DNA of 64,000 nt from Armatimonadota bacterium (GTDB lineage: Bacteria; Armatimonadota; UBA10988), in contig JACRKZ010000029.1 of NCBI GenBank assembly GCA_016235455.1, positions 4,183 through 68,182 on the forward strand. Direction: 5' to 3'. Below the pieces are notes generated by a model that had not been told where the DNA came from, made no database searches, and saw only the letters and a program-made list of their open reading frames with translations. Shown one piece after another: positions 6,247 through 8,741 of this stretch. Position 1 is the first letter of the stretch. Each line of letters starts with the position of its first letter. The translations under genes and the position numbers were made by a program.

Positions 6247-7650
6247 GTGGTTTTCTCGTCCTACCTGTTCCTCTTTGGGTTCCTGCCGCCGGCGCTGGCC
6301 GCCTACTACCTGTGCCCGCCGCGCCACCGCACGCTGGCCATGACGCTGCTCAGCTACCTGTTCTACGGCTGGGCCAGCCCCTGGTTCGTCCTGCTACTAG
6401 CCGGCACGACCGTATTCGACTACGTGGCCGGCCTGGTGGTCAGCGGGCGGTTCGCCTGGGCCGCCGGCGACCAGCAACGCCGGCTGGGCGTCGTGGCCTC
6501 GGTCACGGTCAACCTGGCCATGCTCGGCGCCTTCAAGTACCTGGGGTTCGCCCAGGAGAACCTGAACTGGCTGCTGGATGCGCTGGGCCGGCCGACGCTG
6601 GATGTGATACGCGTCGCGCTGCCGGTGGGCATCTCGTTCTACACGTTCCAGTCGATGAGCTACTGCATCGATATCTACCGCCGCCGGGCTCAGCCGTGTG
6701 AGTCGCTGGCCGACTTCGCCTGCTACGTCTCGCTGCTGCCCCACCTGGTAGCCGGGCCCATCGTGCGCTACCACCAGATCGCCGACCAACTGCACCAGCG
6801 CGAGTACACCTGGGCGCGCTTCAACCACGGCGCCGCGTTCTTCGCGTTCGGCCTGGCGAAGAAGGTGTTGCTGGCCAATCCGATGGGCGAGATGGCGGAC
6901 GCCGCCTGGGCCGCGGGCGGCCTGTCGGCCGCCCAGGCCTGGCTGGGCGCCGTGGCCTATGCCTTCCAGATCTACTTCGACTTCTCGGGCTACAGCGACA
7001 TGGCCGTGGGCCTGGGCCGCATGATGGGCTTCGAGTTGCCACGCAACTTCGAGCGGCCGTATCTGGCCGACAGCATCACCGACTTCTGGCGCCGCTGGCA
7101 CATCTCGCTCTCCACCTGGCTGCGCGACTACCTGTACTTCCCACTCGGCGGCAACCGTCGCGGTGCGCTGCGCACCTATGCCAATCTGGTCATTGTCATG
7201 CTGCTGGGCGGCCTGTGGCATGGCGCGCAGTGGACCTTCGTGGCCTGGGGTGCGCTGCATGGCGCCGCGCTCATCGCCGAGCGCTTGATGGGCCGCCAGC
7301 CGCTGTACCAGCGCGCGCCGCGCTGGATCCGCGTCAGCCTGACCTTCCTGTTGGCGCTGCTGGCCTGGGTGCTGTTCCGCAGCCCGACCATTGGCGCCGC
7401 AGGCGCGTATCTGATGGCCATGGCCGGCTGGGGCCAGGGTCGGCCGCTGGTCGATGCCGTGCTGCGTTCGCCCGACCATCTGCTCGCTCTGGCCGCTTGC
7501 CTGTGGGTCACCTGGCGCTGCGCCGACACCTGGGAGGCGCTGGCCCATCTCACCCCGCGACGCGCGTGGCAGGCCGGCCTGCTGTTCGTCGCCGCGGTGC
7601 TGGTGCTGTTCACGCAGGATTACAGCCCGTTCCTGTATTTCCAGTTCTAG
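6247..7650 (+). CDS. MBOAT family membrane O-acyltransferase (AlgI/DltB/PatA-like)
   Basis: Starts VFSSYLFLFGFLP, as AlgI does, and is multi-TM. Likely GTG start. Conserved MBOAT His region (LWHGAQWTFVAWG). Confidence 0.85.
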   Translation: MVFSSYLFLFGFLPPALAAYYLCPPRHRTLAMTLLSYLFYGWASPWFVLLLAGTTVFDYVAGLVVSGRFAWAAGDQQRRLGVVASVTVNLAMLGAFKYLGFAQENLNWLLDALGRPTLDVIRVALPVGISFYTFQSMSYCIDIYRRRAQPCESLADFACYVSLLPHLVAGPIVRYHQIADQLHQREYTWARFNHGAAFFAFGLAKKVLLANPMGEMADAAWAAGGLSAAQAWLGAVAYAFQIYFDFSGYSDMAVGLGRMMGFELPRNFERPYLADSITDFWRRWHISLSTWLRDYLYFPLGGNRRGALRTYANLVIVMLLGGLWHGAQWTFVAWGALHGAALIAERLMGRQPLYQRAPRWIRVSLTFLLALLAWVLFRSPTIGAAGAYLMAMAGWGQGRPLVDAVLRSPDHLLALAACLWVTWRCADTWEALAHLTPRRAWQAGLLFVAAVLVLFTQDYSPFLYFQF

Positions 7651-7658
7651 GAGCCGCC

Positions 7659-8741
7659 ATGGGCGCCGACAACCAGTACAGCTACCGCACCGAGCCCGGC
7701 ACGCGCTGGGTCGGCGGCCTGCTGCTGGCGGTCTGCGCGCTGGTCGGCCTGGCCGATGCGGCGCTGCGTTCGTGGCCGGCGGCGCCGGCCTTCACCGGCG
7801 CCGGGTTGCGCGGGTACGAGCGCGCCTTGGAGATCGGTTCGCCGTGCGGCAAGGCGCTTCGCCCGCCGGTGCAGACGCTGCTGTCACAGTCGCTCGGCCG
7901 CGGCAACTCCCAGACCGTGGTTGGCGCTGGCGGCTGGCTCTACTACACGACCGGCCTGCGGCACGTGGTCGGACCCGATGTGCCGCTCGACACGCGGCCC
8001 GGCGGGCCGCTGGCGGCGTTCGCCAGCCTGCGCGCCGCGCTGGCCGAGCGCGACATCCACCTGCTTGTCCTGTCCGTACCCGACAAGGCCACGCTCTGCC
8101 CCGAGCCGCTGACCGGCCGCGCCGCCGACGTGCCACAGCGCAACCCCGCGGTGCCGCGGCTGTGGTCGATGGCAGCGGACCTCGGCGTGGAGGCGCTGGA
8201 CCCCACGGACCTGCTGTGGGCAGAGCGGGCCGGCGGCGTCTACCTGCGCACTGACACCCACTGGAACCCGCGCGGCATGGCGCTGACCGCGCAGGCCGTG
8301 GCCGACCGGCTCAACCACCTTGGCTGGCTGGAGGCCGCACCGCGCACCGCATACCACGCCGCCCCGGAGGTGCGAGTGCCATGGCACGGCGACCTGATCC
8401 GCATGCTCGGCCTGCGCGACGGCGCAGCCTGGCCAGCGCCCGAGAGCGTGACGCTGACCCCCGTGCAGGACGACCAGGGCCGCCCCTGGCGCCCGGGCGT
8501 GGCGCCGCCCCTGGTGGTGGCTGGCGATAGCTACAGCGACGCCTTCGCCGCGCAGCAGGCGGGATTCGTGCCGCATCTCGCGCTTCGGCTCGGGGTGCAG
8601 GCGCGGTGGGTGGACAGAGCTGAACGGCTGCTTACGGACGACGGCGCTCTGCGTGGTGCGCGCGTTGTGCTGTGGCAGATCGCCGAGCGTCGACTGACCG
8701 AGAACCAGCGCTGGTGGCCGTACTTCCCAGCGCACCGATGA
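7659..8741 (+). CDS. DHHW-motif protein (AlgJ/AlgX/PatB-like partner of MBOAT)
   Basis: Carries the motif LRTDTHWNPRGM (D-x-H-W). N-terminal TM/signal. The stop TAG of the MBOAT gene overlaps its RBS AGGAG. The ORF's N-terminal extension from 7215 overlaps the MBOAT gene and was rejected. Confidence 0.7.
   Translation: MGADNQYSYRTEPGTRWVGGLLLAVCALVGLADAALRSWPAAPAFTGAGLRGYERALEIGSPCGKALRPPVQTLLSQSLGRGNSQTVVGAGGWLYYTTGLRHVVGPDVPLDTRPGGPLAAFASLRAALAERDIHLLVLSVPDKATLCPEPLTGRAADVPQRNPAVPRLWSMAADLGVEALDPTDLLWAERAGGVYLRTDTHWNPRGMALTAQAVADRLNHLGWLEAAPRTAYHAAPEVRVPWHGDLIRMLGLRDGAAWPAPESVTLTPVQDDQGRPWRPGVAPPLVVAGDSYSDAFAAQQAGFVPHLALRLGVQARWVDRAERLLTDDGALRGARVVLWQIAERRLTENQRWWPYFPAHR

Follow-up and report, generated by a model that had tools for sequence, protein, structure and literature searches.

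The DNA analysed here is a 64-kb stretch (the window) of one uncultured Armatimonadetes genome, with a G+C content of about 70% and roughly 50 genes. Within it, a gene for an MBOAT acyltransferase and a gene for an AlgJ-like partner of the Pfam family ALGX (proteins MBI5831588.1 and MBI5831589.1; locus tags HZB16_) lie side by side in a plus-strand run that begins with a LacI-family regulator gene and continues into glycosidase genes. Here we consider what this pair encodes and how its position in the run may be explained. The gene map was assembled from an open reading frame (ORF) listing, frame checks, and profile searches (Pfam and NCBIfam).

The MBOAT and AlgJ-like gene pair

An initial annotation of the window had located an MBOAT and an acyl-transfer partner at this position, and our Pfam matches and the intact catalytic motifs of both proteins bear this out. 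The pair and its motifs are as follows:

6247-7650, plus strand: MBOAT acyltransferase of the AlgI/PatA/WssH type, 467 amino acids, GTG start (PF03062)
7219-7221, plus strand: codon of the catalytic His325 (in G-L-W-H-G), aligned with the conserved His of DltB
7630-7647, plus strand: C-terminal acyl-shuttle hexapeptide FLYFQF (FxYxxF; Tyr464), a motif described in PMC12148441
7659-8741, plus strand: AlgJ-like SGNH-type O-acetyltransferase partner (Pfam ALGX, PF16822), 360 amino acids, ATG start
8076-8087, plus strand: V-P-D-K, corresponding to the AlgJ signature P-x-K (Pro141 and Lys143), invariant in the alignment
8253-8264, plus strand: D-T-H-W, containing the catalytic Asp199 and His201 plus Trp202, invariant and aligned with the DTHW of AlgJ
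8523-8531, plus strand: G-D-S (G289-D-S291), containing the catalytic Ser291, invariant and aligned with the GTSYS block of AlgJ

The first protein of the pair matched PF03062 in a Pfam search (E=8e-31; 108 bits against a cutoff of 27) and aligned with DltB structures in a PDB sequence search (E=1.5e-30). It is 64-70% identical to Armatimonadota homologues, and both the G.WHG motif and the C-terminal F.Y..F motif were present in 120 of its 120 closest homologues. An Rfam search returned nothing above threshold and only one sub-threshold chance match, located inside this gene. In PatA, the tyrosine of the C-terminal hexapeptide is auto-acetylated from acetyl-CoA, and the SGNH partner in turn receives the acetyl group from it (Anderson et al., PMC12148441); the same acetyl-Tyr shuttle has been proposed for AlgI, WssH, and related MBOATs, and for all MBOAT-SGNH pairs (PMC12148441).

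The second protein had been assigned to the DHHW family, but it did not match PF14286, the Pfam family of that name, at E<=0.01. It is instead a member of the ALGX family (AlgJ/AlgX type), matching PF16822 with E=1.3e-30 (107 bits against a cutoff of 26.5), with a weak match to the SGNH family PF19040. By sequence it matched AlgJ (4O8V) at E=1.5e-10, with about 20% identity, and a search of PDB sequences at E<=1 returned AlgJ and AlgX chains only. A Foldseek search with a predicted model likewise gave AlgJ and AlgX chains alone at E<0.001, the best being AlgJ at 6e-11; the AlphaFold model, of low overall confidence, was built from a five-sequence alignment, with a predicted local distance difference test score of 58.8 (70-90 in the core), and served for this coarse fold match only. 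A hydrophobic N-terminal anchor was found at about residues 14-36.

Homologues of the partner were collected by an exhaustive HMMER search, which gave 2855 matches, whereas a word-indexed search gave only 5. In an alignment of the partner with 11 homologues, P141, K143, the D199-T-H201-W202 motif on which the initial annotation had made the partnership depend, and G289-D-S291 were all invariant. In PaAlgJ, the signature residues P135 and K137 and the triad are required for alginate O-acetylation (PMC4148444). Two short internal segments that are common in the homologues are missing from the window protein, and these deletions are shared by a single homologue, P0126, which is 40% identical to it.

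The two genes are closely packed. The TAG stop codon of the MBOAT gene overlaps a GGAG sequence located 8 nucleotides (nt) ahead of the ATG of the partner gene, in agreement with the initially reported overlap between the MBOAT stop and the ribosome-binding site of its neighbour. The G+C content at third codon positions of the pair is 0.89-0.91, and neither this value nor the codon usage is distinguishable from those of the neighbouring genes. Our data give no sign of a chimeric assembly or of recent transfer.

As a biochemical class alone, the pair can be predicted with considerable confidence to be an MBOAT-SGNH O-acetyltransferase. Following the PatAB/Dlt paradigm, we infer that the membrane MBOAT would, via His325, take an acetyl group from cytoplasmic acetyl-CoA and place it on Tyr464 of its own extracytoplasmic FLYFQF peptide. 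The membrane-anchored AlgJ-like partner would then receive the acetyl group on Ser291 (triad Asp199/His201/Ser291) and transfer it to a glycan hydroxyl in the extracytoplasmic space. The known MBOAT-SGNH systems listed in PMC12148441 acetylate cell-envelope polymers. The acceptor of the window pair would most likely be a polysaccharide that is secreted or part of the envelope, with its synthesis genes located beyond the window.

Conservation of the pair and its neighbourhood

The partnership of the two genes was examined in 87 MBOAT loci, of which 80 came from a scan in which each GTDB species was represented by one genome and 7 from elsewhere. The scan loci, with MBOATs of 48-63% identity, represented Armatimonadota, Planctomycetota, Verrucomicrobiota, Acidobacteriota, Desulfobacterota, and other phyla. 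An ALGX homologue was carried by 78 of the 87 loci, and the gap between the two genes was usually less than 40 nt where ALGX directly followed MBOAT. Many loci contained extra ALGX-type genes, either upstream or about 3 kb downstream.

Five Armatimonadota loci (L004, L006, L007, L172, and L173) share a five-gene cassette in varying surroundings, located for example at 5069-12558 of L007. It consists of genes for a beta-propeller protein (PQQ/PD40-like), a long ALGX protein (about 620-700 amino acids), the MBOAT, a short ALGX protein (about 380-545 amino acids), and a conserved small ORF that has no Pfam match. In L173 the propeller gene is placed downstream, and in the other four loci it is placed upstream; the cassette MBOATs are 57-67% identical to that of the window. 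Since no homologue of the propeller, long ALGX, or small ORF was found within the 64 kb, the window pair is a minimal, two-gene version of the cassette and, judged from gene content, looks like a reduced derivative of it. The cassette itself is a conserved and possibly useful by-product of our analysis. Exact-sequence contig look-ups with the window MBOAT and ALGX proteins gave no record.

The rest of the plus-strand run comprises the following features:

4830-5870, plus strand: LacI-family regulator, first gene of the run (Pfam LacI and Peripla_BP_3)
5896-6210, plus strand: rhaM, L-rhamnose mutarotase (PF05336, E=3.7e-30; TIGR02625, 109 bits, cutoff 99.6)
8761-10317, plus strand: GH4 alpha-galactosidase, cytoplasmic type (Pfam Glyco_hydro_4 and 4C; NF011657, 570 bits, cutoff 486)
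10318-10463, plus strand: structured 146-nt spacer between the GH4 and LamG genes (folding energy compared with shuffles)
10464-13418, plus strand: LamG-domain protein, 984 amino acids, signal-peptide-like N-terminus (Laminin_G_3, E=9.5e-24)
13415-15379, plus strand: DUF5060 and GH5-like glycosidase, signal-peptide-like N-terminus (DUF5060, E=3e-12)
15470-19153, plus strand: GH2 LacZ-type beta-galactosidase with an inserted LamG domain (Pfam and NCBIfam profile searches)

These profile searches agree with the flanking genes named at the outset: LacI and rhaM on one side, and GH4, LamG, GH5-like, and GH2 on the other, in one run. A divergent intergenic region of 211 nt precedes the LacI gene, and the successive gaps from LacI through rhaM, MBOAT, ALGX, GH4, LamG, and DUF5060 to GH2 are 25, 36, 8, 19, 146, -4, and 90 nt. 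The gap between the partner and GH4 is thus as short as had been described, although it measures 19 nt and not 20. In PDB sequence comparisons, the DUF5060 protein matched DUF5060 proteins (6e-38) and, with weak similarity, GH5 mannanases (1e-8).

To assess linkage between the pair and these genes, we ran tblastn (E<=1e-8) within up to 10 kb of each MBOAT locus. Homologues of GH4, rhaM, LacI, the 984-residue LamG protein (LamG984), and DUF5060 were found in none of the 87 loci, and a GH2 homologue was found in 2. The converse sample consisted of 80 metagenomic loci kept with GH4 orthologues (66-79% identical); homologues of MBOAT, ALGX, rhaM, LamG984, and DUF5060 were absent from all 80. Among the GH4 loci that include upstream sequence, L090 is the most similar to that of the window, and its ORFs upstream of GH4 are unrelated. 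The sole syntenic relative that we found, L168, with about 80% nucleotide identity, shares the GH4-LamG-DUF5060 arrangement.

The closest pair that we found consists of P0020 (MBOAT; 70% identical, N-terminally truncated) and P0126 (ALGX; 40%), each recorded on a JGI contig of 8484 nt; this contig would extend about 6 kb past the pair. Among the LamG984 homologues, none was recorded on an 8484-nt contig, and none of the 80 kept GH4 loci came from such a contig. These observations hint, indirectly, that what follows the closest pair is not the set of genes found in the window.

The genes around the MBOAT loci were heterogeneous. When the nearest genes outside the module were annotated (73 upstream and 63 downstream), the commonest families were extra GDSL lipases (4), fn3 (3), PD40 (3), and GFO/IDH/MocA (3); sugar-catabolic families were sporadic, and glycosyltransferase and export families were absent from the 25 most frequent flanking families on either side. 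The module is therefore free-standing in this clade, and a biosynthetic neighbourhood is not its normal expectation. The premise of the initial annotation that such pairs normally occur in biosynthetic clusters did not hold in the 87 loci, where further ALGX-type genes were the only conserved company. Because the pairs occur in several phyla with no conserved neighbours, their acceptors cannot be guessed from context.

Elsewhere, the window contains an arabinose/fucose-isomerase-like gene, an enolase-superfamily dehydratase, an iron-containing alcohol dehydrogenase (Fe-ADH), an aldo-keto reductase, fucosidase-like, GH32, and GH106-like enzymes, a pectate-lyase-fold protein, and parts of ABC transporters. 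None of its genes was found to encode a glycosyltransferase, flippase, polymerase, synthase, or polysaccharide exporter. The remainder of the window points, on this predicted gene content, to sugar catabolism and transport. Since about one in five of the window genes is glycan-active, a glycosidase neighbour is likely by chance.

Several other features of the window were observed. The LamG984 family consists of proteins of about 1000 amino acids, mostly unnamed metagenome proteins, whose named members are mostly from Armatimonadota; the C-terminal 600 or so residues of LamG984 matched no Pfam family or solved structure. The LamG and DUF5060 genes overlap by 4 nt both in the window and in L168 (LamG at 291-3245 of L168). 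The PDB entries matched by the DUF5060 protein (9GMJ, 9GPC, and others; E about 1e-37) are titled only "DUF5060 domain-containing protein," and our literature search found no paper describing them. The TIM barrel and domain 4 of the GH2 protein (1227 amino acids) are separated by a Laminin_G_3 insert at residues 583-740.

Two paralogous membrane proteins of about 650-715 amino acids (DUF6785 and DUF6784) are encoded at 19191-21158 (minus strand) and 43050-45194 (plus strand), adjoining the fucosidase-like and GH32 genes, respectively. Homologues also occur near MBOAT cassettes in L006 (109-2106) and L065 (about 19589-21301), and these proteins may represent an uncharacterised sugar-transporter family. 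A single ORF of 829 amino acids at 39803-42289 (minus strand) joins an extracellular solute-binding domain (SBP_bac_1) to an ABC permease domain (BPD_transp_1) in an apparent fusion, which may be genuine or a start or frameshift artefact, and is followed by a second permease gene. The gene at 31659-33083 (plus strand), which adjoins the Fe-ADH gene, has a weak match to Tn5/DDE-type transposases (E about 1e-4) and may mark a local rearrangement.

Transcription of the run and interpretation of the pair

The gaps of 8-36 nt between successive genes, with no terminator-like site inside the run, suggest that LacI, rhaM, MBOAT, ALGX, and GH4 form one transcription unit. A sigma-70 promoter scan found no sites in the window and terminator-like sites at chance level; for this phylum, such a scan carries no information. 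The 146-nt spacer after GH4 can fold into a long hairpin with a minimum free energy of -81.7 kcal/mol (z=-4.4), and none of 200 shuffled sequences was as stable. The equivalent spacer of L168 (158-290), diverged in sequence, is also structured (z=-3.2). The hairpin at 10318-10463 is likely to mark a transcript boundary or a processing site, and it may act as a terminator, as an attenuator, or in RNA processing.

Ahead of LacI there is a single palindrome, ACCGATATCGTT at 4713-4724, which lies within the divergent intergenic region at a distance of 106 nt from the LacI start and is a candidate operator. Its frequency is not above chance, as 7 of 100 shuffles reached 2 matches, and no LacI operator or regulon could be defined in the window.

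We consider it moderately probable that the pair is an intact, self-contained AlgI/AlgJ-type glycan O-acetyltransferase, that its acceptor is made elsewhere in the genome, and that it came to lie in a catabolic run by lineage-specific rearrangement. Its predicted co-transcription with LacI, rhaM, and GH4 would then probably be a genomic accident and not a conserved functional coupling.

Several points weigh against this explanation. The short gaps (36, 8, and 19 nt) on a single strand, the LacI gene at the head of the run, and the presence of a strong hairpin only after GH4 make co-regulation of the pair with catabolism likely in this host, and such co-regulation could be meaningful. The one syntenic relative, L168, begins within the C-terminus of GH4 and is silent on what precedes that gene, so it is uninformative on the ALGX-GH4 junction. 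The partner has diverged, with 30-40% identity to its homologues against 64-70% for the MBOAT, and this divergence and its two deletions could signify a new acceptor specificity. Finally, no acceptor-synthesis genes were identified in the 64 kb of the genome that is visible.

Readings in which the coupling is meaningful, namely a protective and a LacA-like role, together receive a small share of our confidence, their basis being gene packing in a single genome. The more plausible of the two, itself unlikely, is co-induced self-protection: a LacI-controlled transcript would turn on O-acetylation that shields the cell's own surface glycan from the exported LamG and DUF5060/GH5-like enzymes. This would account for the operon-like spacing from LacI to GH4 and for the signal-peptide-like N-termini of the LamG and DUF5060 proteins, and O-acetylation is known to block glycan-cleaving enzymes, as in the case of peptidoglycan and lysozyme (PMC12148441). 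However, the linkage is unconserved in the 87 and 80 related loci, the structured spacer separates GH4 from the genes for the exported enzymes, no LacI operator was definable, and we found no evidence of a glycan of the cell's own that the exported enzymes would cut.

Another unlikely proposal is that, in this lineage, a minimal pair was recruited into a LacI-regulated galactoside/rhamnoside operon, O-acetylation being induced together with glycan degradation and the fast divergence and deletions of ALGX reflecting a new acceptor. If this were true, the sugar signal that triggers degradation would also trigger acetylation, which would either shield the cell's own surface glycan from its secreted hydrolases or, much as a LacA working in the periplasm might, modify oligosaccharides on their way into the cell.

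The Escherichia coli lac and mal systems include sugar O-acetyltransferases, and the pair shares its LacI-headed run with alpha- and beta-galactosidases. It could be envisaged as an extracytoplasmic counterpart of LacA/Maa and a part of the catabolic pathway, working in the periplasm on galactosides or oligosaccharides that are entering the cell or cannot be metabolised, and acetylating them for tagging, detoxification, or retention; in addition, WssI is reported to be able to acetylate short cello-oligomers (PMC10302187). We regard this role as very unlikely, since the linkage is unconserved (0/87 and 0/80 loci), known MBOAT-SGNH systems act on cell-envelope polymers (PMC12148441), and our literature search found no earlier case of an MBOAT placed in a catabolic locus.

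Nor did that search yield an earlier example of an MBOAT in the context of polysaccharide utilisation. To our knowledge, no MBOAT-SGNH system serving a degradative pathway has been described. A functional tie between the pair and sugar catabolism would therefore be novel if true, but the missing precedent is itself no evidence for such a tie.

The initial annotation had suggested that the pair may mark the locus as one for making or remodelling a cell-surface or secreted glycan; on such a reading of the whole locus, the glycosidases would act as trimming enzymes. A glycan-modifying transferase does adjoin apparently exported glycosidase-like proteins; however, the 64 kb contains no glycosyltransferase, Wzx/Wzy, synthase, or export component, no signal peptide is present in GH4 or in the LacZ-type GH2, both of them typical catabolic enzymes of the cytoplasm, and rhaM, LacI, and the isomerase-like and dehydratase-like genes indicate catabolism. 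Because the window is catabolic and biosynthetic and export genes are absent from it, this proposal is unsupported, and we give it very little credence. Equally improbable is that ALGX is mainly an acetylesterase that deacetylates plant or microbial glycans for degradation, with the MBOAT irrelevant or vestigial: AlgJ has acetylesterase activity in vitro (PMC4148444) and the locus is catabolic, but the MBOAT, including its shuttle motif, is wholly intact and is translationally close-coupled to the partner (8-nt gap), an ALGX homologue is kept in 78 of the 87 MBOAT loci, and the membrane anchor of the partner fits a complex with the MBOAT.

On the explanation that we prefer, a self-contained O-acetyltransferase pair displaced into a catabolic run, the locus provides a further example, from an uncultured phylum, of an AlgI/AlgJ-type pair that is free-standing, which matters little as it stands. 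The case also illustrates why a catabolic cluster should not be renamed biosynthetic on gene adjacency alone.

Comparison with known O-acetylation systems

The AlgI/AlgJ(/AlgX/AlgF) system of Pseudomonas resembles the window pair in that the MBOAT is followed by a membrane-anchored ALGX-family protein with identical P-x-K, D-x-H-W, and G-x-S-Y-S signatures. In contrast to the alginate system, the window lacks alg8, alg44, algK, algE, algG, algL, algF, and a second ALGX protein. With no alginate synthesis or export genes, AlgF, or AlgX in the 64 kb, membership in the alginate O-acetylation system was rejected, and the acceptor is almost certainly not alginate.

The WssH/WssI and CcsH/CcsI systems, which act on cellulose, show that an MBOAT and a single AlgJ-like transferase can suffice as a catalytic core, as the window pair would require. 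However, the window has no cellulose synthase genes (bcs, wss, or ccs) and no WssF/WssG-like genes; the absence of bcs, wss, and ccs genes led us to reject a role in cellulose O-acetylation. PatA/PatB, which modifies peptidoglycan in Gram-negative bacteria, is likewise a two-gene MBOAT and SGNH system, and its MBOAT also ends in FxYxxF. It differs in that the window partner is of the ALGX type and no Ape1-like esterase gene is adjacent to the pair; PatAB membership was rejected on the absence of any PatB chain at E<=1 in the PDB sequence search.

DltB/DltD, which functions in the D-alanylation of teichoic acids, follows the same MBOAT and SGNH logic, and DltB is the closest solved MBOAT structure. 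In the window MBOAT, the shuttle motif is fused to the protein, whereas that of Dlt is carried on a microprotein. We rejected a DltB/DltD identity on a TIGR04091 score of 161 bits against a cutoff of 375 and on the absence of adjacent DltA, DltC, and DltX genes; the low DltB score and the missing Dlt genes place the pair in the class with an MBOAT-fused shuttle and an acyl-CoA donor.

The five-gene Armatimonadota cassette differs from the window locus by its three additional genes and by a short ALGX that in the window is reduced to 360 amino acids with two internal deletions; both have a short ALGX gene directly downstream of the MBOAT gene and in the same orientation.

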